Assembly: GCA_963820205.1 (NCBI GenBank)
Contig: CAWFZJ010000024.1
Coordinates: 14-64,013, forward strand
DNA length: 64,000 nt
Source of the DNA: an uncultured Verrucomicrobiae bacterium
GTDB lineage: Bacteria > Verrucomicrobiota > Verrucomicrobiia > Limisphaerales > UBA11358
Direction of reading: 5' to 3'
Below are positions 43,993-59,712 of this stretch, in pieces. Each line of letters opens with the position of its first letter. Within the stretch, counting starts at the first letter, position 1. The notes under the pieces were generated by a model. It was not told the origin of the DNA. It made no database searches and saw only the letters and a list, made by a program, of their open reading frames with translations. The translations under genes and the position numbers were made by a program.

Positions 43993-46407
43993 ATGAAAAT
44001 CCGCGCCTTACGTTTATCCGCCTTCTTGTTGGTGTCCGCTCTTGGCGGACTTCCGCTCTGCACCCATGCGGCGACCGGTGACGAGCATTGGGATTACCAG
44101 TTTGGCATTCCGGGGACCGATGATGGGGTCGCGGTCATCGCCACCAACGGCAGCGACATGTATGTGGCCGGGCAGTTCCGGTCGGTGGCCGGCGTGGTGG
44201 CGAACCGGGTGGCGCGGTTTGACGGTCTGCGGTGGTCGCCGCTCGGCAGCGGCATCGGCAGCACGAGTGTGTCCGCGCTCGCGTTCCAAGGTGACAATGT
44301 TTATGCGGGCGGCTTCTTTACGAGCGCGGGCGGCGTGGCGGTCAACAATATCGCGCGCTGGGACGGCACCAACTGGTATGCGCTGGGTTCCGGCGTGAAC
44401 AATTACATTTATGCCATGGCCACAGTGGGCAAATATGTTTATGCGGGCGGCATGTTTACCAGCGCGGGCGGCGTGGCGGCCACCAATATCGCGCGCTGGG
44501 ACGGCACCAACTGGTCGGCGTTGGGCCGAGGCGTCTCCGGGCTGCTGGTCAAGACGCTGGCGACCGACGGGACGAATCTTTACGCGGGCGGCGCGTTCAC
44601 CAATGCCAGCGGCGTGACGGTCAATAACATTGCGGTCTGGGACGGTACGAAGTGGTCCGCCTTCCACGGCGATCCGGGCACCAACAGCGCCATCTTTACG
44701 ATTCTAGTGGACGGTTCCAACATCTACTTGGGCGGCGGTTTCAGCAAGGCGGGGGGCGTTGCCGCGACCAACATTGTGAAGTGGAACGGGAGCGGCTATG
44801 AAGCGCTGGGGAGCGGTTTGACGGGAACCAACGTTGCCATTTATGCGATGGCGCGCATGAAGGGCGACCTGTATGTGTGCGGCAGCTTCACCAACGCCGG
44901 AGGTGTGGCCGTCCAGAACGTGGCCCGCTGGAACGGCAGCACCTGGACGAACCTGGCGGAAGGCGTCACGGCCGCCTCCCCAACCCTGCCGTTGTTGCTG
45001 TACGGTTTGGGAGCGGGGCCGGACGGACGGCTTTACGTTGGCGGATTTTTTGATACGGCCGGCACGCTGGGGGTTTACGATCTGGCCGCCTGGGACGGGA
45101 CGAACTGGCAGTTGGTGCGTCCGGGGGCGGGCAACGGACTCTTCATCCCCAGCACGAGCATGGTTCGCGCGGTCGCCGTCAACGGCAATGATTTGTATGC
45201 CAGCGGCACTTTTACGGCGGCCGGGACCATCAAGGCGAACCGGGTGGCGCACTGGGACGGCACCAACTGGTGGGCGATGGGCAGCGGCATGAAAGGAACG
45301 AATGACTCTGTCACCACGGTGGTTTCCGCCCTGGCCATCAGCGGCGGCTACTTGTATGCAGCCGGGAATTTTACCAACGCCGGCGGCGTGACGGTCACCA
45401 ACATCGCGCGATGGGACAGCAGTTCCTGGTCGGCGCTTGGCTCGGGCCTGGACAATCAGGCATCGGCCATGGCCGCCAACGGCAGCGATGTGTATGTGGG
45501 CGGCAGTTTCATCAAAGCGGGCGGTGTCACCGCCAATTACATCGCGAAATGGAACGGCAGCGCCTGGTCGCCGCTGGGGACGGGTCTCAATGGCAGCGTG
45601 TCGGCGATTTCGGTTGGTTCCGATGGCATTTATGTGGGCGGCTCTTTCACCACCGCCAGCGGTGTGACGGTCAGCAACATCGCGCGATGGGACGGAGCGG
45701 CCTGGCATTCGCTGGGCAACGGCACGACCAACGGCGTGGGCGGAACGGTCACCGCCATCCTGCCGGTCTCGCCGACAGAGGTTTATGTGGGCGGCACGTT
45801 CACGACGGCGGGAGTAGTCAGCGCGAACCGGATTGCCAAGTTTGACGGCACAAGCTGGTCGGCTTTGGGCAGCGGCATGTCGGGCGTCACTTCCCCGTCT
45901 GTCAACGCCCTGGCGGATGACGGAGTGTATTTGTACGCGGCGGGCGCGTTCACCAACGCCGGGGGAACCATGGTGTCCACCATTGCGAGATGGGACGGGG
46001 CATCCTGGACGAGTCTGGGCAGCGGTCTGGCGCGGCTGGCCATAGGCGGCACCGGACCCATTGCGGGAACGGGTGCGGCGCTCGTTTTCAATGGAAATGA
46101 TCTTTACGCGGGCGGCATGTTCGTCACGGCTGGAGGCAAGGTTTCGTCCGGAATTGCGCGGTGGAACGGACAGACAACTTTCACGCCACCGGCGGTCATG
46201 TCTCTGGGCCGGCCTTGCATGGCCTCGGGCGGACAGTTCCAGTTCCGGGTGACAGCAAGCTCTGACGTCAGTTATGTCATCGAAGGTTCCGACGACCTGG
46301 CAATCTGGCTGCCAATGACCACCAACAGCGCCAGTCCGTTTATCTGGTTGGATTCAGATTTTTCCAGCCACGCGAATCGCTTTTACCGGGCGCGGCAAGC
46401 TCAATAA
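43993..46407 (+). CDS. secreted beta-propeller-type repeat protein (14 x ~50-aa repeats) with a C-terminal FYRA module
   Basis: It has a signal peptide. The repeat G.FT.AGGV.A.NIA.WDG..W..LG.G occurs 14 times, read from the W(D/N)G motifs. The C-terminal ~80 aa end in ANRFYRA. Confidence 0.7.
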   Translation: MKIRALRLSAFLLVSALGGLPLCTHAATGDEHWDYQFGIPGTDDGVAVIATNGSDMYVAGQFRSVAGVVANRVARFDGLRWSPLGSGIGSTSVSALAFQGDNVYAGGFFTSAGGVAVNNIARWDGTNWYALGSGVNNYIYAMATVGKYVYAGGMFTSAGGVAATNIARWDGTNWSALGRGVSGLLVKTLATDGTNLYAGGAFTNASGVTVNNIAVWDGTKWSAFHGDPGTNSAIFTILVDGSNIYLGGGFSKAGGVAATNIVKWNGSGYEALGSGLTGTNVAIYAMARMKGDLYVCGSFTNAGGVAVQNVARWNGSTWTNLAEGVTAASPTLPLLLYGLGAGPDGRLYVGGFFDTAGTLGVYDLAAWDGTNWQLVRPGAGNGLFIPSTSMVRAVAVNGNDLYASGTFTAAGTIKANRVAHWDGTNWWAMGSGMKGTNDSVTTVVSALAISGGYLYAAGNFTNAGGVTVTNIARWDSSSWSALGSGLDNQASAMAANGSDVYVGGSFIKAGGVTANYIAKWNGSAWSPLGTGLNGSVSAISVGSDGIYVGGSFTTASGVTVSNIARWDGAAWHSLGNGTTNGVGGTVTAILPVSPTEVYVGGTFTTAGVVSANRIAKFDGTSWSALGSGMSGVTSPSVNALADDGVYLYAAGAFTNAGGTMVSTIARWDGASWTSLGSGLARLAIGGTGPIAGTGAALVFNGNDLYAGGMFVTAGGKVSSGIARWNGQTTFTPPAVMSLGRPCMASGGQFQFRVTASSDVSYVIEGSDDLAIWLPMTTNSASPFIWLDSDFSSHANRFYRARQAQ

Positions 46408-46595
46408 ACGCCGCGAGAGAGCGGCCGACTGGATCAAGCGATTTCAGCCACAGATTCACACAGATTTTCACAGATATTGTCTTTTGATTTCCCTTTCCGT
46501 GTTTCATCCGTGTCCATCCGTGGCTATAAAAGTTCTGCTGCTCTCTGCACCTTTGCGCCTCTGCGGTGAATTCCGGCTGGGACCGGGCGGGCGGA

Positions 46596-46820
46596 TTATT
46601 CTTGAATCAAAACCGCCTTGTTCTTTTTCAGAAATTTCTCCACGACGCGCTTGCCGCTCACGGAAGTCTGGGTGCGGACGGCATCGGGCTTGGCCAGCTT
46701 GTAATGCACCAGCAATTTGCCGACGAGTCCCACCTTGAGATTCAACTCCGCCATGCGCCAGATTTGGCCGGTTTCCAGCGGTTGAAGGCTAATCCGGCGT
46801 GCCGGCTTGTTATTCTTCAT
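46596..46820 (-). CDS. conserved 74-aa hypothetical protein, paralog of 30244..30468
   Basis: MKNNKPARRISLQPLETGQIWRMAELNLKVGLVGKLLVHYKLAKPDAVR..VEKFLKKNKAVLI. It has an ATG start. Confidence 0.55.
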   Translation of the reverse strand: MKNNKPARRISLQPLETGQIWRMAELNLKVGLVGKLLVHYKLAKPDAVRTQTSVSGKRVVEKFLKKNKAVLIQE

Positions 46821-46875
46821 AAGGTAGTTTGCCCCGGCGCAGGCTGTTTAACCAGCTAAATCGTAAAACCAAGAT

Positions 46876-46981
46876 GAACCACGAAAGACACGAAGTACAC
46901 GAAAAAGGGCTGAAGCCGGTCATTTTACAAGGTGCAGGCCATGCCTTGTCATTTCGTGTCTTTGGTGTGTTTCGTGGTTTC
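46876..46981. repeat. MITE/REP-like palindromic element, cacgaaa-arm family, copy 1
   Basis: The arm gaaccacgaaagacacgaagtacacgaaaaa pairs with tcatttcgtgtctttggtgtgtttcgtggttt. It is homologous to 49717-49853. Confidence 0.8.
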
Positions 46982-47237
46982 AACTGCTGCCGTTCCGGTA
47001 AGCCAGTTTCACAACCCAATCGGCCAGGAAGAATAAAATGGCTCCCAATATCAGCCCCGGAACGCCAAAAACGAAGTAAGACAGGCTCGATGTCGTCTCG
47101 GCATCGCTGCCCTGGCTGACTTGCAGGATGTTTTCAAAAACATTGTCAAACCCCGACCACACATTCCACAGGCTGTAGATAATCATCAGGAATCCGGTCG
47201 CCCGGACCACAACGCCAAACAGTTCGGATGCTTTCAT
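46980..47237 (-). CDS. hypothetical small membrane protein
   Basis: 85 aa from ATG 47237, with two TM helices (GFLMIIYSLWNVW and VFGVPGLILGAILFFLADWV). The support is weak. Confidence 0.35.
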   Translation of the reverse strand: MKASELFGVVVRATGFLMIIYSLWNVWSGFDNVFENILQVSQGSDAETTSSLSYFVFGVPGLILGAILFFLADWVVKLAYRNGSS

Positions 47238-47313
47238 GTATATTCTGACCAAGCCTGAACCATCGGCGTTTCCGTTGTCAATGCCGGGGTGATGCGAGTG
47301 GCAGGCCACTGCG

Positions 47314-47439
47314 AAATGACTAATGCCTAAATCCTAATGACGAAATATGCCCAAAGCACGAATGAGCAAGCCGAATGACGTATTAGTCATTGGTTCATTT
47401 GGAAATTCTTTTGTCATTATGGTTTAGGAATTAGTCATT
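47314..47439. repeat. MITE/REP-like palindromic element, aatgac-arm family, copy 1
   Basis: aatgactaatgcctaaatcctaatgacgaaa pairs with ttttgtcattatggtttaggaattagtcatt. A related copy lies at 55114-55240. Confidence 0.75.
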
Positions 47440-47515
47440 CAAGGAGGCGTGCCTCCGCACATTTCCCGCGCGTTTTGTTTTGGCAAGCGCGCCGTTCGCG
47501 GATTAACTAGACGCC

Positions 47516-48920
47516 ATGCAAGCCGTGCTCGATTACTTGAAACGCAACCAGGCCCGCTTCGTGGCCGAATTGTGCGATTACCTCCGCTTTCCCAGCGTCT
47601 CCGCCCAGCCGCTGCACAAAAAGGATTTGCGCGCCTGCGCCGGCTGGCTCGTGGACCATTGCCGGCATATCGGCCTCGACGCGCGCCTGTGCCCCACCGC
47701 CGGCCATCCCATCGTCGTCGCCAAAACCCCCGCCTTCGATGCGCTTCGGCGCGGCAAGCCGCTCGCGAATTCAAATGCGAAGCGTCCGCACTTCATGATT
47801 TACGGCCACTACGACGTGCAGCCGCCGGAGCCGCTCGAATTGTGGAAATCGCCGCCGTTCGCGCCGCGCATCCAGGGCCGCTCGATTTACGCCCGCGGCG
47901 CCATGGACAACAAAGGCCAGAACTTCGCGCATTTGAAAGCCGTCGAGGCCTATCTCCAAACCGGCACTCCCCTGCCCTGCGACCTCACGTTCGTCCTCGA
48001 AGGCGAGGAGGAGGTCGGCAGCGCGAACCTCGCGAAATTTCTCAAATCGCACCGCGCGGAGTTGAACTGCGACGCCGTGGTCATCTCCGACACCGACATT
48101 CCCAGTCCCAAACATCCCGCGCTGGCCTATTCGCTGCGCGGCATCATCGCGTTTGAAATCACCGTGCGTGGCCCGGCGCGCGATTTGCATTCCGGCGTCT
48201 TCGGCGGGTCCGTGGAAAATCCGGCGATGGCGCTCGCCCGGCTGCTCGCGCAACTTCGCGACGCCAATGGCCGCGTGTCCATTCCCGGTTTCTACGACGA
48301 CGTCGCGCCGCTTTCAGCCTACGAACGGAAACAATTCGCCCGGCTGCCCTATCAAGGACCGTGACCTCCAAAAATTGCTCGGCGTGAAAAAATTATTCGG
48401 CGAACGCGGCTTCACGCCCACCGAACAGCGCAGCGCGCGCCCGACGTTTGAGATCAACGGCCTGACGAGCGGCTACCAGGGCGAAGGCAGCAAGACGATT
48501 GTGCCGGCCTGGGCGCGGGCGAAAATCACCTGCCGCCTCGTGCCAAACCAAAGACCGGCGAAGATTCGTGAACTCGTCTGCCGGCACATCAAAAAAATCT
48601 GTCCGCCGACGGTGCGTCTCGAAATCGAGGCCGGTCACGGCGCGGAGGCGTATCTGGTTTCGCCCACGAGCGCGCGGGCACGGGCGGCGTTGCGCGCGCT
48701 CGAAGCCGCGTTCGGCTGCCCGCCGGTGCTGATGCGCGAAGGCGGCTCGATTCCCATCGTCAACGATTTCAAAAAGATTCTTGGCGCTGACTCGCTGCTT
48801 CTGGGTTTGGGTCTGCCGGACGGCAACGCACATTCGCCGAACGAGAAATTCAATCTCGATTGTTTTGCCAAAGGCCAGGCCATGAGCGCGCATCTGTGGC
48901 AGGAGTTGGCAGGCTGCTGA
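47516..48920 (+). pseudogene. M20-family dipeptidase, one frame break as assembled
   Basis: YGHYDVQPPEPLELW, ARGAMDNKGQ and LEGEEEVGS in the N-terminal frame. TFEINGLTSGYQGEG and REGGSIPIV..PDGNAHSPNEKF in the next frame. Removing one C of ccc 48347-49 gives ..FARLPIKDRDLQKLLG... Confidence 0.85.
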
Positions 48921-49024
48921 GTAGGAGCCGACGTAAGGAGGCTTTGACTTTTAGAACTCTCAACACTCAACCATGAACCCTCAACCCGATCAGAGCCTCG
49001 TCACCTCGGCTCCTACAAAAATCA

Positions 49025-50451: not shown

Positions 50452-50574
50452 ATGAGGTCGTGGCACGTCTTGGGTTGGTGGTGGGGCGAGCGTCCTCGCG
50501 AGCCGGTTTTACGTGCCAACGCTGCGCGACGGCGGCTCGTCATAGCCTCACCCCACCGAAACTATAGCCGACCC

Positions 50575-51612
50575 ATGAAAGAAAAGATCCGACAGCGGGC
50601 GCTGGAATTGGGATTTGACGATTGCCGGTTCACGACCGCCGCCCCGCCCGCAAGCGCGGGCCAGTTCCAAAACTGGCTGGAGGAAAAGTATCATGGCGAG
50701 ATGGCCTGGCTTGAACGAACCGCCGCGAAGCGCGTTGATCCACACCGCGTGCTGCCGGAAACCAGAAGCGTAATTTGTCTGGCTGCCAGCTACGCGGGCG
50801 AGGTCGAGGGCCATCCACCGCATGCCACGCATCACGTTTCACGTTTCACGTTTCACGGCCTCATCTCCCGCTACGCCCAATTCACCGATTACCACGACGT
50901 GCTCGGCGAACGATTGAAGCAGTTGACCCAGTTCGTGAATCAACTGGGCGGTGCGGAAACGAAATCGCTGTGGTACGTGGACACCGGGCCGCTGCTGGAA
51001 CGCGATTTTGCCCAGCGCGCCGGACTCGGCTTTGTCGGCAAGCATACCAACGTCATCAGCCGGCGATTCGGCAACTGGATTCTGCTGGCGGAGATTGTCA
51101 CGTCGCTCGAACTGGAACCGGACGCGCCGGAGAAAAATCACTGCGGCAACTGCACTCGCTGCATCACCGCCTGTCCCACGCGCGCCATCACCGCGCCGTT
51201 CCAGCTCGATGCCCGGCTTTGCATTTCTTACCTCACCATTGAATTGAAAGGTTCCATCCCGATTGAACTGCGTCCGGCCATCGGCAACCGCATCTTCGGT
51301 TGTGACGATTGCCTGGCGGCGTGTCCGTGGAACCGGTTTGCGCGCGAAGGCCGGTTGATGAAAGAACACGCGCGACCCAACCTGGCCGCACCGGACCTGA
51401 TTGAACTGCTGCAACTGGACGAGGTTGGTTTCAAATCACGTTTCGCCGGCACACCGGTTTTGCGGACGAAACGTCGCGGCCTGCTGCGCAACGTCTGCGT
51501 GGCATTGGGCAACACTGGTGACGCCTCCGCCCTGCCCGCTTTGAACCAGGCCGCCAAAGATTCCGAGCCATTGATAGCCGAACACGCCCGCTGGGCGATA
51601 ACGCAGATTTAA
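50575..51612 (+). CDS. queG: epoxyqueuosine reductase
   Basis: From ATG 50575: MKEKIRQRALELGFDDCRFT, ISRYAQFTDYHDV, CGNCTRCITACPT and GCDDCLAACPWN (4Fe-4S motifs). The C-terminus has HEAT-like repeats. It contains a 7-mer microsatellite at 50833-57. Confidence 0.9.
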   Translation: MKEKIRQRALELGFDDCRFTTAAPPASAGQFQNWLEEKYHGEMAWLERTAAKRVDPHRVLPETRSVICLAASYAGEVEGHPPHATHHVSRFTFHGLISRYAQFTDYHDVLGERLKQLTQFVNQLGGAETKSLWYVDTGPLLERDFAQRAGLGFVGKHTNVISRRFGNWILLAEIVTSLELEPDAPEKNHCGNCTRCITACPTRAITAPFQLDARLCISYLTIELKGSIPIELRPAIGNRIFGCDDCLAACPWNRFAREGRLMKEHARPNLAAPDLIELLQLDEVGFKSRFAGTPVLRTKRRGLLRNVCVALGNTGDASALPALNQAAKDSEPLIAEHARWAITQI

Positions 51613-51716
51613 AGCCGAAACAATAAATAGCCGGCACTCACATAGCCGTATCGTTAACAGAGGAGGAAATAGACGTGACAACTTAGCATTTGGTAATTAC
51701 CGTCATTAACATCATT

Positions 51717-52238
51717 ATGGCAGCGATTCTTCCACAAGCGCGGTTAAAACGCATAGCGGAGGCTTCGTGTGAATGCGTTAAGATTTGGAAAGAGGGCGTT
51801 TCTCTGGAGAAAGATTCAGGTAAAAGAATTCAAATTCTTCTTTGCGCAACGGCAGCCGATCGGTGGAAACTTGGTTATGTTTTTCGCGCTCAAGCAAACA
51901 CGTTTTTTGCTACTCAGCAGTTCCGGAGCGCAATCAGTCGATATTATTACAGTATGTATCACACAATGAGAGCGTGCGTTTTTATTCATCACGAAGGAGA
52001 TGATCATGAGAAACACAGCGAATTGCCCCTGCATATTCCGCCGACTCTCGATCCTGCCGGAACCGATTGGCAAACCAAATTAAAAGACGCTCGTTTGCTG
52101 CGAAACCGAGTCGATTACGAGGCGTATCCGAAGTCTGAAAATGCTTGGAGAAGAAATGCTATTACCATTAGAGCCGACGCAAACCAGCTTGTAATTGTGT
52201 CTCGGTCTTATTTGAAATTGAAAGGCTGCTTGTTATGA
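51717..52238 (+). CDS. HEPN-domain protein (UPF0332/COG1895-like)
   Basis: AISRYYYSMYHTMRACVFI..G...EKHSEL ... ARLLRNRVDYEAYP matches the SRAYYAMFHAA.ALL..G...KH.G ... R...DY pattern of UPF0332-type HEPN proteins. An alternative TTG start lies at 51690. The stop overlaps the next ATG in an ATGA (52235-38). The sequence is AT-rich. Confidence 0.6.
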   Translation: MAAILPQARLKRIAEASCECVKIWKEGVSLEKDSGKRIQILLCATAADRWKLGYVFRAQANTFFATQQFRSAISRYYYSMYHTMRACVFIHHEGDDHEKHSELPLHIPPTLDPAGTDWQTKLKDARLLRNRVDYEAYPKSENAWRRNAITIRADANQLVIVSRSYLKLKGCLL

Positions 52239-53887
52239 ATCAATTAGACCTCTCCCTCACCCCCGACGCCTTAATCAGGAGTCGTTTCGCCGAAGCTGGC
52301 ATTCAAATCAGCGCACTCGACCGGCGGGACTACCCTGAAGAGACGATATTCGTGGTTCGCGTTGCTGAAGCCGATTATGCAAATGCAGTCAAAATTGGCA
52401 ACTCCATTGATCATGAAATCGGGAAATTGAATTTCAAAGGTTTTGTCACCGTCCGCAAAATTGAATCCTCTAGCGCAAGCGTTACTTGGTTGAAAGACGG
52501 AGTTGCAAATTCTAAAGCGAATGAATTGGTAAGTTTATTGACGGCTCGATCCAGAACATCGGAAATTCAACCAAGCCTTCGATACATTCCTGATACGGCA
52601 CGGAACATCGCGACAGTTGTTGCGCCGCGGCATCAATTAATCTTTGGACGCAGAGGTGCCGGGAAAACCGCATTAATGGTAGAGGCGAAGCGTCGGATTA
52701 TGGAACAACGCAATGTTTCGGTCTGGATGAATCTGCAAACTTTGAGATTAGAGTCGGTGCAACGTGCCTTTGTAATAATCTGTCAGCAGGTGTGCCAGGC
52801 AATGCAGGGGCTGTTTATAGAGACAAGTCGAACTCCCCAAGTGTTGTCTACTATCGTTGAACTTGGGGAATATCTCGATAAATTATTCGCTGAGAAAGAA
52901 GTGACAGATCTTGAGATGGGGCGACTAATTCCACGGATGCAACAAACCATTCGCCGGTTTCTCGAGAGTAGTTCCGTTCGAATGTTTATTTTTATTGATG
53001 ACTTGCATTATTTGCCCCGGTCACAGCAACCAATTCTGTTGGACGCGCTGCACGGAATGGTTCGGGATTGTGACGCTTGGTTGAAAATTGCAGGCATCAA
53101 GCATCTGTCTCGTTGGTTTGAGGCTCATCCGCCTCGAGGATTACAAACGGGCCACGATGCTGACCACATTGACTTGGATATCACTTTGGAAAACCCTTCT
53201 AAAGCAAAGCTTTTTTTGGAGGAAATTCTTGTGAGCTATGCTCATAGTACTGGAATTACATCGCTTGCCAGTATAATTTTGAATCAGGCGCTTGATCGTT
53301 TAGTCCTTGCATCTGGAGCCGTCCCTCGTGATTACTTGGTGCTTAGTGCCGGGGCAATTCGGCAAGCACAGCGCCGTGAGAGGGCTAAACTTGTTGGGGT
53401 CCAAGACGTAAACAAGGCAGCGGGAGAAGCAGCAAAAGTGAAACTGACAGAATTGGAGGACGATGCCTCTTCGTCGGCAGGAAGTCCAAAGATTGTAACT
53501 GCTCTCCAGAGGATTCATAGTTTCTGTATCGACGACAAAAGATCTACATACTTTCGGATTGATTTTAGAGATAAAGAACAAAGACCGACAGAGTACAGCT
53601 TGGTCCAAGACCTCATGGATTTACGCCTCATTCACCTTATTGATCCGAGTTTGTCAGATGAGAAAGAGGCCGGTCGGCGGTCCGAAGTGTACATGTTAGA
53701 TCTCAGCCAGTTTTCAGGACAAAGGCTCAAGAAAAGTCTGAAAGTTCTTGATTTTGTAGCGGGTCATTTAGTCCTAAAAGAAACTGGCACCACCAAACCG
53801 GCGAAAGTTGGCAGCAGTTCAAAACAGCGTTTAGGACTTTTGCGACGCGGTTCCTTATTCAATCTTGATAGATTACGCTTAGGTTGA
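52235..53887 (+). CDS. P-loop NTPase, AAA+/ORC-Cdc6-like, with an unassigned N-terminal domain and a winged-helix-like C-terminus
   Basis: Walker A is GRRGAGKT (52646-69). Walker B is FIFIDD (52985-53002). A lid-like segment GAVPRDYLVLSAGAIRQAQ resembles the GDAR.A..LL segment of Cdc6/Orc1. I recognised no nuclease or other effector motif. Confidence 0.65.
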   Translation: MNQLDLSLTPDALIRSRFAEAGIQISALDRRDYPEETIFVVRVAEADYANAVKIGNSIDHEIGKLNFKGFVTVRKIESSSASVTWLKDGVANSKANELVSLLTARSRTSEIQPSLRYIPDTARNIATVVAPRHQLIFGRRGAGKTALMVEAKRRIMEQRNVSVWMNLQTLRLESVQRAFVIICQQVCQAMQGLFIETSRTPQVLSTIVELGEYLDKLFAEKEVTDLEMGRLIPRMQQTIRRFLESSSVRMFIFIDDLHYLPRSQQPILLDALHGMVRDCDAWLKIAGIKHLSRWFEAHPPRGLQTGHDADHIDLDITLENPSKAKLFLEEILVSYAHSTGITSLASIILNQALDRLVLASGAVPRDYLVLSAGAIRQAQRRERAKLVGVQDVNKAAGEAAKVKLTELEDDASSSAGSPKIVTALQRIHSFCIDDKRSTYFRIDFRDKEQRPTEYSLVQDLMDLRLIHLIDPSLSDEKEAGRRSEVYMLDLSQFSGQRLKKSLKVLDFVAGHLVLKETGTTKPAKVGSSSKQRLGLLRRGSLFNLDRLRLG

Positions 53888-55041
53888 TCATCAAACCAAA
53901 CATTTTCAGATAGCTTGATGGTTTTTTCAGGGCGCTGGCGTAGCTCCGCTCGCCCATGACTACATCGGCCACAAATTCACTCAGTTCCTGGCCTCGGATA
54001 CGAAAAGCCCAGTTGCGGAGCCGGGGATAATTGTAAAGCACATTGGCCAGCATCCTGCCCGCGCGCAACTCCCGAAGAATTTCCGTCTCCAGCAGGGATT
54101 GATAAAGTTTGCCTGTCCGGGAAACGTCCAGCCGGCAATCGGCCAGCGCCGTTGCCGCCAATTGTCCGCTCCGGACGGCATAAGATATTCCTTCCGCTGT
54201 CACCGGATCCACCAAGCCGGCGGCGTCGCCCACGAGCAATATCCGGCCGCGTGCCAGCGCTTCCCGCCGGGGCGCCAGCGGAATCAGGTGGCCGTGCTTT
54301 TCGATTTTTTGAATCCGGGCAATCCCGAGCCGTTCCATGTAATCCGTCAACTTTGCGCGGAGATCGGTGTTTGCCCGGCGCGTACTCAAAATTCCCACGG
54401 AAAGATGCTCTCGTTTGGGAAAGACCCAGGCATAACCGGCTTCGATGGAGTTAAAGTCGAATCGCGGGATTTTGCCGAAGCGCTCAAAATCTTCTTCGGC
54501 AAGATGGACCTCGTATTCCAAGGCGGGCGCCAACAGCGGGCAGTTCCGACCAGCCAGCCGCTTTGGCTGTCGCACTGTGTACGCCATCGGCCGCAATGAT
54601 GAACTTTGCCCGAAAGTTGCCCCGGTCGGCGGAGATTTCAACGAACTGCTCCCGCACGGTCACGTGTCGCACCGGGCAGGATTCCACAATCTCGGCTCCG
54701 GCAATTCCGGCTTCGCGGGCCAGCAGGCAGTCCAGGTCCGCCCGCATGGTCATGTGGACAATCGGTTCGGAGCGGGTCACGACGAAATTCAAATCCGTTC
54801 CCAGGAAATTCAATTGAGCCGAATTGAACCTGCGTTCCACAACGCGTTCCACGCCCGGCGGCAACAGCTTGAAAGCGCGATGGAGCACGCCGCCGCCGCA
54901 GGTCTTGTAACGCGGGAGAACTTCCTTCTCCAGAAGCACGACGGACAAACCTTTGCGAGCCAGGGTCAGGGCGGCCGAACATCCGGCCGGCCCGGCGCCA
55001 ATCACCGCGACGTCGTAAAGCTTTGGTTGTTCGGCGCTCAT
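53859..55041 (-). pseudogene. geranylgeranyl-reductase-family FAD-dependent oxidoreductase, one frame break as assembled
   Basis: YDVAVIGAGPAGCSAALTLARKG (FAD motif), IAADGVHS, then LLVGDAAGLVDPVTAEGISYA in the next frame. Removing one C (plus-strand ggg, 54538-40) joins ..WSELP to LLAPALEYEV... The last ~20 codons are AT-rich and overlap the ATPase gene by 29 nt. Confidence 0.8.
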
Positions 55042-55367: not shown

Positions 55368-57537
55368 ATGAAAGACCAAATCGTCCGTTTGTTGGACCAA
55401 AAAGATTATGTCCCGGCCAATGTGCCGGAATTGCTCCGGCTGCTCCGGCTGCCGCCGCATCGCCAGCAACTGTTGCAGGGCGCGCTCCGCGAACTGGAGC
55501 AGTCGGGCCGCATCGCCCGCATCAAGGGCAACCGCTACATCCAGCCGCGCGAGGCGGATTTGATTCCGGGCCGCATCCGGATGAACCGCCAGGGCAAGGG
55601 CTTTCTCCAGCCGGACGATGCCGGCCTCAAGGAAATCGCCATCCCGGAGGGCGCGACCGGCACGGCCTTGCACGAAGACCGCGTGCTGGTGCGGCGCGAC
55701 GTCCGGCCCAAGGGCTTGCGCTCCGGCGCGGTCGAGGCGGACACGGGCACGGTCGTTCGCATCCTGGAACGGCGGCGCACGCAGATGGTCGGCACGTTGC
55801 AACGCGGACGAAAATTTCTCTACGTCATTCCCGATGATCCGCGCATCCCGCACGATATTTATGTGCCGGAACCGCGCGACATGGGCCGGCCCGCGCGCAT
55901 CGGCGACAAGGTGGTGGTCGAATTGCGCGAATGGGAATCGCGCCACACGAATCCGGAAGGCGAGATCGTCGAGGTTCTCGGCGCGCCGGGCGAGGAAGGC
56001 GTGGACATGCTGTCGGTGCTGCGCCAATACGATTTGCCGCTGCATTTCCCCAAGGCAGTGCTGCACGAGGCGCACGCCATCGGCACGACGGTTCACGCGC
56101 GCGACGACGCGGGCCGCGTGGATTGCCGCCGTCACCGGGTCATCACGATTGATCCCGACGACGCGAAGGATTTCGACGACGCCATCTGCCTGGAACGCGT
56201 TTCGCCGGAGCAATGGCGGCTGTGGGTCCACATCGCGGACGTGTCGCATTACGTGAAGCCGGGCACGGCGCTGGACGTCGAGGCGCGCAAACGCGGCAAC
56301 TCGACCTACCTGGTGGACCGCGTCATCCCGATGCTGCCGGAGGCGTTGAGCAACGAACTGTGCTCGCTCAAGCCGGACGTGGACCGCCTGACCAAGTGCG
56401 TTGAATTTCTCATTTCCAACGACGGGCGGGTGTTGAACGCGAAGTTTTATCCCGCCGTGATTCATTCGCAGCGGCGTTTCACCTACGGCGAGGTGCTGGA
56501 GATTTTGGAGCGCAAGCCCGCGTCCGACCCGATTGAGCAGATGCTGCATCAGGCGCATGAACTCGCCCAGCGCATCCGGCGATTGCGGTTCAAGGCCGGC
56601 TCGCTCGACCTCGATTTTCCCGAAACCAAAATCCGGCTGGACGAACGCGGGAACATTTTGCGCATCGAGAAGACCGTGAACGACGTGTCGCACCAGTTGA
56701 TCGAGGAATGCATGCTGCTGGCGAACGAGGCGGTGGCGGGGCGGTTGATGAGCCAGCACACGCCGGCGGTTTATCGCGTCCACGAAGAGCCGGACGACCG
56801 GCGTTTGCAGGAATATCGCCAGGAGGTGTTGAGCCAGAACGTGCCGTGCGGCAATCTCAGCCAGCCCACCGAGGTGCAGAAATTGTTGTCACCGGCTCGG
56901 CACGCTGCCCATCGGCCCCGCGCTCAAGATCGGCTTTCTCAAATCGCTCATGCGCGCGCGCTACGCCGTCGAGCCGCTCGGACATTACGGCCTGGCCAAG
57001 AAAAAATACACGCACTTCACCTCCCCCATCCGCCGCTACGCCGACCTCGTGGTGCATCGCGCTTTGTTTGACAAAAACTCTCCCGGGACCTCCGCGCTCA
57101 AGGAAACCGCCGAGCACATTTCCGTGACCGAACGCAATTCCGCCGACGCCGAGCGCGACAGCAAGGACGTGAAACTGTTTGCCTTCCTGAAGGCGCAACT
57201 TGCCTCCGGCCATCCGGAACATTATCCGGCGCTGGTGACCGACGTGCGCAACTTCGGCTTCTTCGTGGATGTTTCCGGGCTGGCGATGAGCGGACTGGTG
57301 CCGTTGTCCACGATCGAGGATGACTTCTACGTGTTCGACGCCGCGCGCAACAATCTCGTGGGCCGCCGCACCCGCCGCATCATCCGTCTCGGCGACCAGT
57401 TGACCGTGCAAGTGGCCAAGGTGGACAGCTTCAAAAAGCAGGTGGATTTCCGTCTCGTGGAAGACCGCAAGCCGGTTGCGCGGCCTGCGCGCGGAGCGCA
57501 GTCGCGTCCATCGCGAAGACCATCGGCGCGGGAGTAG
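55368..57537 (+). pseudogene. rnr: ribonuclease R, one frame break as assembled
   Basis: The N-terminal wHTH is followed by the RNB core (ITIDPDDAKDFDDA, HIADVSHYV, STYLVDRVIPMLP). After ~56895 it continues LGTLPIGPALKIGFLKSLMRARY..GHYGLAKKKYTHFTSPIRRYADLVVHR and ends in an S1 domain. Removing one G of gg 56894-95 restores the frame. Confidence 0.9.
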
Positions 57538-59565: not shown

Positions 59566-59712
59566 CTTGTCGCCTTCCACCGTAGCAGCCGACGTGAGCC
59601 GGCTCTAACTTTCGCCGGATGAGAATGAGCGGACTCATATTGCCTTGCGAACATCGCCATGCGCTCAGAGTTGGAGTTCACGCTTCAGCGTGTCCCACGC
59701 CGCATCAACAAG

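Follow-up and report, generated by a model that had tools for sequence, protein, structure and literature searches.

We have identified, in a 64,000-nucleotide stretch of DNA (hereafter the window) from an uncultured Verrucomicrobiae bacterium (contig CAWFZJ010000024.1 of the assembly GCA_963820205.1), a horizontally acquired island composed of two genes. The upstream gene, g1, encodes a HEPN-domain protein of a non-canonical class related to UPF0332, and the downstream gene, g2, encodes an AAA+ ATPase with similarity to ORC/Cdc6. The loci collected here give good support to the conclusion that the two genes are a conserved, co-inherited unit. The island is most likely a self-contained, mobile cassette of a toxin and its regulator that acts as a defence module of the abortive-infection type, and we estimate the probability of this reading to be roughly 0.55. 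A preliminary description of this DNA, made from the sequence alone, had already pointed out the pair as a candidate conflict or defence module and had recognised in it no named system; indeed, the searches of PADLOC-DB v2, NCBIfam 2026, and the literature support the view that the pair matches none.

The HEPN–ATPase pair as a co-inherited unit

The island contains two long open reading frames (ORFs) on the plus strand, g1 and g2, and no more, and these are joined by an ATGA in which the stop codon of g1 overlaps with the start codon of g2, exactly as the preliminary description had it. When proteins homologous to g2 were searched for among 1.84 billion representatives, the family amounted to 312 clusters (at 50% identity) with the threshold of E ≤ 1e-30 and to 1092 clusters with that of E ≤ 1e-3. 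We then examined 37 genome loci, which represent at least seven phyla, the taxa with paired loci being Verrucomicrobiota, Poribacteria, Planctomycetota, Actinomycetota, Acidobacteriota, Alphaproteobacteria, and Binatia. A g1 homolog was found directly upstream of the g2 homolog in all of the testable loci (36/36), and the retention of a four-nucleotide stop/start overlap (ATGA, TTGA, or GTGA) in 34 of these supports translational coupling of the two genes. Furthermore, the pairwise distances among the g1 homologs are correlated with those among the g2 homologs (r = 0.92), and none of 2000 Mantel permutations reached this value.

A sister subfamily, in which the ATPase shares 29% and the HEPN protein 26% identity with the main family, is hosted by Burkholderiales (Burkholderia, Paraburkholderia, Pandoraea, and Delftia) and others. 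Also in this subfamily, the pairing is kept in 5/5 loci, and the four-nucleotide overlap of the ATGA type is seen in four distinct loci. The pair is very broadly distributed, being known from eight or more bacterial phyla and extending over Actinomycetota (including Streptomyces, Nocardia, and Mycobacterium) and over Alpha- and Betaproteobacteria (including Burkholderia and Delftia).

A conserved third gene was not found, with no family being shared among the 103 flanking genes of the pair loci. As a candidate for such a component, we considered a 118-aa ORF that is always located 3′ of the pair in Poribacteria; this ORF was rejected, however, as it encodes a Rieske protein and is followed by MsrB. 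Decay of the pair was observed in two genomes: the ATPase is frameshifted in one of Poribacteria (L030:8001-9627), and what is left in Bradyrhizobium macuxiense (L037:7666-8732) is a fragment of the HEPN protein together with 243 aa from the C-terminus of the ATPase.

Folds and predicted active sites of the two proteins

The assignment of g1 to the UPF0332-type HEPN proteins, as put forward in the preliminary description, was borne out by both structure and profile comparisons. Translation of g1 would start at ATG 51717, which gives the 173-aa form in the database, or at TTG 51690 upstream in the same frame. The AlphaFold2 (AF2) model of g1, which was made from the alignment of 61 family sequences, has a predicted local distance difference test (pLDDT) score of 95.6 and is an all-helical bundle corresponding to the HEPN fold. 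In the Foldseek search of the PDB, the top match was AF_0298, a HEPN protein of UPF0332 (2hsb; E 2.9e-3, TM score of 0.70 on the target), and further matches were sacsin HEPN, the HEPN toxin 7ae6, 1ufb, 1o3u, 2q00, and 1wol, with TT1696 and TM0613 among the names. When the g1 family profile was compared with the PDB, 9xbd (E 4.5e-5), AF0298 (2hsb; E 5e-4), and the HEPN protein of Retron-Kva2 (E 6e-3) were hit. The Pfam model PF05168 (HEPN) gave a sub-threshold score for g1 of the window (13.4 bits vs the cutoff of 22; E 0.092) and an above-threshold score for a prophage homolog (L126; 31 bits); many homologs are annotated with PF05168 in a precomputed list, and many are also named “UPF0332 family” by JGI.

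The g1 motifs, RSAISRYYYSMYH..RA, GDDHEKHS, and RLLRNRVDY, coincide with the invariant columns of the family: namely, R70, R75, Y77, Y78, Y81, R85, G94, D95, H100, R126, R129, N130, D133, and Y134 are invariant in the 61 sequences. In the alignment with the HEPN protein of Retron-Kva2, RSAFNRYYYACF corresponds to RSAISRYYYSMYH, H64 to H100, and R122-G-I-V-D-Y to R129-N-R-V-D-Y; in other words, R122, D126, and Y127 of the retron protein are aligned with R129, D133, and Y134 of g1. The Retron-Kva2 HEPN protein has no Rx4-6H motif and relies on H64 and R122, which act across the dimer, and either of the mutations H64A and R122A puts an end to both toxicity and defence (10.64898/2026.07.14.738597). 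This protein cleaves rRNA and tRNA, with its toxicity attenuated by a winged-helix partner (10.64898/2026.07.14.738597), and the HEPN protein of a type IX retron was found to cut tRNA at the anticodon loops (10.64898/2026.07.14.737667). Because the alignment with Retron-Kva2 is consistent in the motifs, albeit weak, g1 is predicted to be an active, non-canonical HEPN RNase. The term “HEPN RNase effector”, which appears in the preliminary description, rests for g1 on this alignment with the type IX retron HEPN and is used here in a predictive sense.

In g2, the motifs listed earlier, i.e., GRRGAGKT, FIFIDD, the lid segment, and the winged-helix-like tail, were all found, and the Walker and lid motifs are conserved among the homologs (Table 1). 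The Pfam model PF24389 (“ORC-CDC6-like”) matched g2 with 50.4 bits (cutoff, 27), and matches to AAA_16 were obtained as well. When the AF2 model of g2 (pLDDT 79.6) was used as a query, the best Foldseek matches were the chains of Orc1/Cdc6 (7jgr_A with E of 1.9e-8, 2v1u_A of the A. pernix ORC1–DNA complex, 2qby_A, and 1fnn_A), with E values ranging from 1.9e-8 to 1e-6 over 420–460 aligned columns, and Apaf-1 and TnsC appeared as more distant matches. Given their length, these Orc1/Cdc6 alignments probably extend into the winged-helix domain. At the level of sequence, similarity of g2 to solved structures including the Orc/Cdc6 chains was undetectable, and the link is that of the fold and the Pfam family only.

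In the AF2 model of g2, three long helices (residues 175–246) are inserted between strand 2 (residues 161–166) and the Walker B strand (residues 250–255), which may correspond to the initiator-specific motif of the initiator-clade AAA+ proteins, and the winged-helix domain is composed of helix 418–434, strand 439–443, helix 444–462, strand 466–474, and strand 482–488. R365 in the lid motif is probably the sensor-2 arginine, as suggested from its position in the lid helix of the model. No arginine finger was assigned in g2, with R293 being only ~70% conserved. The N-terminal region of ~130 residues, to which no domain had been assigned earlier, had no match in Pfam, NCBIfam, or PADLOC, and the sister subfamily does not align there; this region is a candidate for a domain that binds the HEPN protein or serves as a sensor.

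The queG–reductase insertion site and other genomic contexts

The island is located between the convergent genes of QueG and a FAD-dependent reductase. As stated in the preliminary description, this segment is abruptly AT-rich: the G+C content (GC) is 0.459 at 51616–53887, as compared with the 10-kb flanks, which have 0.592 and 0.594, and the GC profile of the window drops from ~0.60 to ~0.45 across roughly 51600–53950. In order to find relatives of this site, metagenomes were scanned with the reductase as a query, by which 80 loci were obtained; about 10 of them are 89–93% identical in the reductase, and several also show 81–86% identity in QueG. Neither g1 nor g2 was encoded in any of the 80 loci (0/80). 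The nucleotide homology to relatives detected with blastn (~90% identity) ends at 53888, one base past the stop codon of g2, in every relative, and the break on the left is at 51599–51615 depending on the relative, where queG ends (51612). Furthermore, one relative (L049) represents an empty site, in which the convergent queG and reductase genes are only 128 nt apart. These results agree with the horizontal insertion that had been proposed for the island.

In other relatives, the same spacer is occupied by unrelated DNA, from 0.5 to more than 2 kb in length, the cargo of which includes small membrane proteins or proteins of no recognised kind. Since the site is empty in L049 and occupied by differing cargo in other relatives, the queG–reductase spacer is a variable insertion hotspot in this lineage, and the precise insertion is documented here with both the empty site and the alternative cargo. 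In one close relative (L088:523-2206), the cargo comprises an insertion sequence with a DDE_Tnp_1 transposase and an AbiGi-like protein (PF10899, 27.4 bits vs the cutoff of 22.4), so that the site takes other conflict-type cargo too.

The empty site contradicts another reading, in which g1 and g2 are a native housekeeping pair, such as an RNA-processing factor and its chaperone, and the low GC is incidental. Such a reading would be in line with the synteny of the pair across 13 Poribacteria genomes and with the sequence conservation of 53–78%. The pair is, however, missing from all of the 80 relatives' loci including the empty site, and the family, with its 312 clusters at E ≤ 1e-30, is small and patchy. 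Also, the GC of the pair is below that of the flanks in 25/25 loci with a mean difference of 0.10, and copies are present in a prophage, a plasmid, and recombinase elements. We hence regard the housekeeping pair as highly improbable.

Mobile elements and defence genes are indeed seen around several copies of the pair. In a prophage of IMG/VR, the pair is placed between integrase/ParB-HTH genes and the gene of a cI-like repressor; in Delftia, it is carried by an element with a large serine recombinase, and in Nocardia, it is near an integrase fragment. On a Paraburkholderia plasmid, the pair adjoins SIR2-HerA and a PIN protein. In the closest relative (78% identity), the pair adjoins a DUF3644 protein, which is a HEPN protein of the HEC-08 type, and this type has been validated as a defence gene (10.1101/2024.01.29.577857). 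In one locus, the pair is near a SNF2-NOV_C helicase, a MORC-like ATPase, and a patatin, and an N6/N4 methyltransferase is a neighbour in another. In a lineage of the sister subfamily (L131:10860-12458, L132, and L133), we noticed, next in line after the pair, the gene of a 532-aa protein that has deaminase domains of the cytidine/MafB19 type; this may be another toxin-like conflict gene.

As to how the island was integrated, a search of 51400–54200 for att-like sites and for direct or inverted repeats at the flanks gave short chance matches only. A tRNA or a noncoding RNA (ncRNA) as an integration target was not found with Rfam in the whole window or in the inserts of the relatives, the lone match being a distant tRNA in L049. 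A scan for promoters and terminators gave counts no higher than the shuffled expectation.

The insertion has left its trace in the reductase gene. According to the preliminary description, the last ~20 codons of this gene appeared to have been replaced by the island, and the gene overlapped with g2 by 29 nt. The overlap is confirmed (the stop codon of g2 is at 53885–53887, and the reductase ORF ends at 53859), but the extent of the replacement is not: the C-terminus reads “...KMFGLMS*” in the relatives vs “...KMFGLM-INLSVIYQD*” in the window, showing that only the last 1–3 native codons and the stop codon were lost and nine island-encoded codons were gained. The 13 somewhat AT-rich codons ahead of the junction are native.

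In each of three flanking housekeeping genes, including that of the reductase, the coding sequence is broken into two ORFs that overlap and lie in different frames. The overlap is at 54484–54641 in the reductase, at 48153–48364 in an M20 peptidase (ORFs 47516–48364 and 48153–48920), and at 56950–57071 in RNase R (ORFs 55368–57071 and 56950–57537). Because the reductase is in one frame in the relatives with 89–93% identity, these splits suggest either erroneous indels in the assembly or genes that have recently become pseudogenes; both genes of the island are intact.

Some further features were noticed at this site and in its surroundings. Most of the close relatives (L047:1978-2143, L089, L052, L053, L084, L088, L054, L046, L048, L051, and L055) have a conserved element of ~170 nt between the reductase and queG, which is 88–97% identical and thus exceeds the flanking coding DNA in conservation. 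This element, in which no ORF is convincing and for which Rfam gives no match, occurs neither in the window nor at the empty site of L049; it could be a small RNA or an end of a mobile element. A hairpin-forming repeat of ~100 nt, resembling repetitive extragenic palindromes, is found repeatedly between genes in this genome and in its relatives (window 48919–49020 and 59582–59612; L047:2217-2319; and several other loci). The window also has a second region of lower GC (~0.50) at 46400–47500, between the genes of a beta-propeller protein and the M20 peptidase; it contains only small ORFs, namely, those of a basic 74-aa protein (46596–46820, minus strand) and a 109-aa membrane protein (46980–47309, minus strand), and may be another small accessory insert.

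Table 1. Positions in the window of the island, its genes and motifs, and the flanking genes
Feature	Position	Strand	Remarks
Horizontally acquired island	51616..53887	.	2272 bp, GC 0.459; between convergent queG and FAD reductase
g1, HEPN-domain protein, UPF0332-like non-canonical class, 173 aa	51717..52238	+	ORF; database form P0121
HEPN signature helix R70-SAISRYYYSMYH-TMR85	51924..51971	+	Invariant R70, R75, Y77, Y78, Y81, R85; aligns to RSAFNRYYYACF of Retron-Kva2 HEPN
G94-DDHEKH100-S loop	51996..52019	+	H100 codon 52014–52016, predicted catalytic His; invariant in 61 sequences
R126-LLR129-N-R-V-D133-Y134	52092..52118	+	Non-canonical counterpart of the Rx4-6H helix; R129 codon 52101–52103, predicted catalytic Arg
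ATGA stop/start overlap of g1 and g2	52235..52238	+	Sequence checked
g2, ORC/Cdc6-like AAA+ ATPase, 550 aa	52235..53887	+	Pfam PF24389, AF2, Foldseek
N-terminal region of g2, ~130 aa	52235..52624	+	Alpha-beta-beta-alpha-beta domain (residues 10–75), then linker (AF2)
Walker A, G138-RRGAGK144-T145	52646..52669	+	Invariant in 38 homologs
Walker B, F251-IFIDD256	52985..53002	+	D255 invariant, D256 at least 90% conserved
Lid motif, A359-SGAVPR365-DY	53309..53335	+	A359 to D366 invariant; R365, predicted sensor-2 Arg
Winged-helix-like domain, ~residues 418–500	53486..53734	+	Followed by a conserved beta-hairpin tail to residue 550
queG (epoxyqueuosine reductase), left flank, native	50452..51612	+	Pfam QueG_DUF1730 and Fer4_16; 81–86% aa identity in relatives
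FAD-dependent reductase, right flank, native	53888..55041	-	Pfam FAD_binding_3 on the N-terminal ORF; split into two frames in the window
Island-encoded reductase extension, nine codons INLSVIYQD*	53859..53887	-	Antisense to the 3′ end of g2

Proposed function, rival readings, and known systems

If the island is a defence module of the abortive-infection type, the two proteins could work together in the following way. On dimerization, the HEPN protein would bring His100 and Arg129 together into a composite, non-canonical RNase site, an arrangement shared with the effector of the type IX retrons. Because the ATGA overlap couples translation, the ATPase would always accompany the toxin, being made whenever the toxin is translated and only then. 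In an uninfected cell, the ATPase would bind the HEPN dimer and thereby hold the RNase inactive. A cue from an invader, for which foreign DNA, a replication intermediate, and a phage protein are candidates, would be sensed by the ATPase through either the module of AAA+ and winged helix or the N-terminal domain. An ATP-dependent change in the ATPase would then release or activate the RNase, which would halt translation and lead to the arrest of the cell.

A more specific version of this proposal, which we advance only tentatively, is that the pair represents an unnamed and widespread immune system, in which an ORC/Cdc6-like, ATP-dependent sensor, recognising invader DNA or a replication intermediate with its AAA+ and winged-helix module, gates a non-canonical His/Arg HEPN tRNase, a kind not otherwise known outside the type IX retrons. 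With g2 as such a sensor-switch, the pair would be a protein-only counterpart of the effector complex in the type IX retrons. If true, a compact two-gene system would be added to the catalogue of prokaryotic immunity, and the non-canonical His/Arg HEPN RNase of the type IX retrons would work outside retrons too; also, the pair would provide a tractable case of the ORC/Cdc6-type initiator fold acting as a toxin switch, which bears on the evolution of AAA+/STAND-like sensors in immunity.

Several observations weigh against a defence module with an active HEPN RNase, and those on the HEPN protein itself are given first. The canonical Rx4-6H motif is not present in any of the 61 sequences of the g1 family, in which the corresponding helix reads R129-N-x-A-D133-Y134 with Asp at the position expected for His; it has been described for the HEPN proteins of this group that those “with conserved D in place of H have a conserved H elsewhere” (Anantharaman et al. 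2013, PMC3710099). The profile match between g1 and Retron-Kva2 is weak, with its second aligned segment below significance. In the HEPN proteins of the sister subfamily (L041, L127, L129, L131, and L133), furthermore, the loop is GDDHxKAS with His at position 97 and none at position 100, as opposed to the main family, where H100 is invariant and position 97 is variable; from this comparison, the catalytic His may be one helical turn apart between the two subfamilies. In addition, no alternative effector that replaces the HEPN protein beside the ATPase was found in the family or in the sister subfamily (29% identity). Sensor–effector defence systems are often characterised by an effector that can be swapped.

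The genomic contexts also have another side. Many loci are flanked purely by housekeeping genes, and in the 13 Poribacteria genomes, the pair occupies one syntenic housekeeping position. Of the 103 genes next to the pair, most are housekeeping genes and only a minority match the PADLOC models. From the phage and plasmid collections, we obtained one distant plasmid copy, one IMG/VR prophage, and no real phage match, the lone hit in the phage collection being short (29% identity over 20% of the query). Among the homologs, which the preliminary description had singled out as the place to check its proposal, the HEPN neighbour is conserved throughout (36/36), whereas the neighbourhoods are mixed with respect to defence genes. 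The association of the pair with defence genes is therefore suggestive rather than demonstrated, because so many of the loci are flanked by housekeeping genes.

The absence of the canonical Rx4-6H motif is what would be expected if the HEPN protein were a non-catalytic adaptor that binds RNA or nucleotides, with the ORC-like ATPase as the working part of a regulatory or maintenance complex that binds nucleic acids and controls, for instance, the replication, partition, or transcription of a mobile element. Several HEPN domains associated with a minimal nucleotidyltransferase (MNT) are devoid of catalytic residues and may act non-catalytically (Anantharaman et al. 2013, PMC3710099); also, Orc1/Cdc6 proteins are DNA-binding initiators, and relatives of the TnsC type are among the Foldseek matches of g2. 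The island carries, however, no other genes for replication or mobility, and most loci are in chromosomal housekeeping contexts. Furthermore, R70, R75, H100, R129, D133, and Y134 are all invariant in the g1 family, with H100 and R129 equivalent by alignment to the catalytic dyad of the type IX retron HEPN, and HEPN proteins with no such motif were still toxic in genome-scale assays (PMC3710099). A non-catalytic adaptor is therefore considered to be unlikely, and both this and the housekeeping pair are less likely than the following rival.

The main rival of the abortive-infection module is a plain toxin–antitoxin or addiction module, in which the HEPN toxin is neutralised by the ATPase antitoxin through sequestration or nucleotide-dependent remodelling with no specific sensing of phages, and the cassette persists by post-segregational or selfish stabilisation or as a stress response. 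The overlapping two-gene operon with low GC and a patchy spread across phyla, the copies with purely housekeeping flanks, and the decayed copies in L030 and L037 would all fit such a module; UPF0332-type HEPN proteins are the toxins of the HEPN–MNT modules. An analogous dyad of HEPN and ParA/Soj has been predicted, with the ATPase as the antitoxin (Anantharaman et al. 2013, PMC3710099). As an antitoxin, nonetheless, g2 is far above the usual size, with 550 residues in three or four domains, and its intact ATPase motifs, winged helix, and conserved extra N-terminal domain suggest a role in sensing or switching. Several copies are, moreover, in accessory slots of prophages or adjoin known defence systems. 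On balance, a plain addiction module appears to us rather doubtful. The core biochemistry is shared between this rival and the favoured abortive-infection module, and because the boundary between toxin–antitoxin and abortive infection is blurred, the rival is in part just another name for this mechanism.

We then compared the pair with the defence systems described to date. The antiphage models of PADLOC-DB v2.0.0 and NCBIfam 2026 gave no full-length match to the pair and only short, partial ones (HEPN_IX, 2e-5 over 37 residues; mad8, 9e-5; and DS41_1, 19 bits vs the cutoff of 370), and no description of a pair of HEPN and ORC-like ATPase was found in literature searches. HEC systems, DefensePredictor DS systems, DARNA/PD-T7-3, and BREX-related systems were considered as a match and rejected, since the papers describe no such pair. 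The logic of an HEPN RNase controlled by an NTPase is already known, namely, from PrrC/RloC, HEPN–DUF499, HEPN–ParA dyads, HepT–MntA, and type IX retrons. The pair is set apart from these systems because it has no MNT, no reverse transcriptase (RT) or ncRNA, no fusion to an ABC ATPase, no DUF499, and no methyltransferase or helicase partner.

Type IX retrons (Retron-Kva2 and Retron-Yin1) resemble the pair in having an HEPN protein of ~174 aa with no Rx4-6H motif and with a helix of RSAxxRYYY, in which the His after the third helix and the Arg on the fourth align with H100 and R129 of g1. The retron HEPN protein is toxic alone and restrained by a winged-helix (KH-HTH) partner, and its cleavage of tRNA and rRNA results in abortive infection. 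The partner in our pair is, in contrast, an ATP-driven, ORC/Cdc6-like AAA+ protein, and the similarity is marginal (E 6e-3) and confined to the HEPN protein. As for the other parts of a retron, the island has no ORF for an RT, the window no Rfam match, and the pair no conserved third gene.

In both sequence and fold, g1 is closest to the UPF0332/COG1895 HEPN proteins (AF0298, 2hsb), by which the pair is reminiscent of HepT–MntA, i.e., the type VII HEPN–MNT modules. Both are two-gene operons with an HEPN toxin, and Y134 beside the arginine helix is kept in g1; the equivalent tyrosine of HepT is the site of AMPylation. Our pair differs in that the toxin gene comes first, in that the partner is an AAA+ ATPase, and in that g1 has an extra N-terminal extension of ~45–65 aa, which is conserved in the family. 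As had been noted in the preliminary description, the gene of a nucleotidyltransferase partner is not in the island, and no nucleotidyltransferase family is among the 25 commonest Pfam families of the 103 neighbours.

The fusion of HEPN with DUF499 (HmaC of Hma, or type 1 “BREX-related”) and BrxC share with our pair the combination of HEPN, an AAA+ ATPase of the ORC/Cdc6 clade, and a winged helix (PMC12839542; PMC3710099), and the ATPase in the HEPN–DUF499 fusions of the BREX-related/Hma systems has been placed in this clade (PMC12839542). The order of the domains from the N- to the C-terminus in HEPN–DUF499 is the same as that of the genes in the pair. HEPN–DUF499 is, however, one large fused protein, with a HEPN domain that belongs to the Swt1/Abi2 type and has the canonical motif, and it is always accompanied by a methyltransferase and a SNF2 helicase–nuclease, whereas the pair has no conserved partner genes. 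In the Pfam search, g2 had no match to DUF499 or BrxC.

PrrC and RloC are comparable to the pair by analogy, in that an NTPase keeps an HEPN RNase off until a phage-linked cue arrives and in that tRNA is cleaved for abortive infection; in these proteins, nonetheless, one polypeptide unites an ABC-type ATPase with a canonical HEPN domain, and PrrC needs a restriction–modification partner. Also comparable are the dyads of an HEPN protein of the MAE_18760 family and a ParA/Soj ATPase, which Anantharaman et al. 2013 (PMC3710099) predicted with the ATPase as the antitoxin. These dyads are likewise composed of two genes, for HEPN and a P-loop ATPase, and are read as a toxin with an ATPase antitoxin. 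The HEPN protein belongs to another family there, the ATPase gene is upstream, and the ATPase is of the ParA/Soj type with a deviant Walker A motif, as opposed to the initiator-clade AAA+ in our pair.

Finally, g2 was compared with the Orc1/Cdc6 replication initiators of archaea and eukaryotes and with the STAND NTPases such as Apaf-1 and Avs. In distinction from these, g2 has no replication context and has an extra N-terminal domain, and the large C-terminal repeat sensor of Avs and other STAND proteins is lacking in g2. With both of these groups, g2 nonetheless shares the AAA+ core, the lid, and the winged helix, and probably also the helical insertion between strands 2 and 3.

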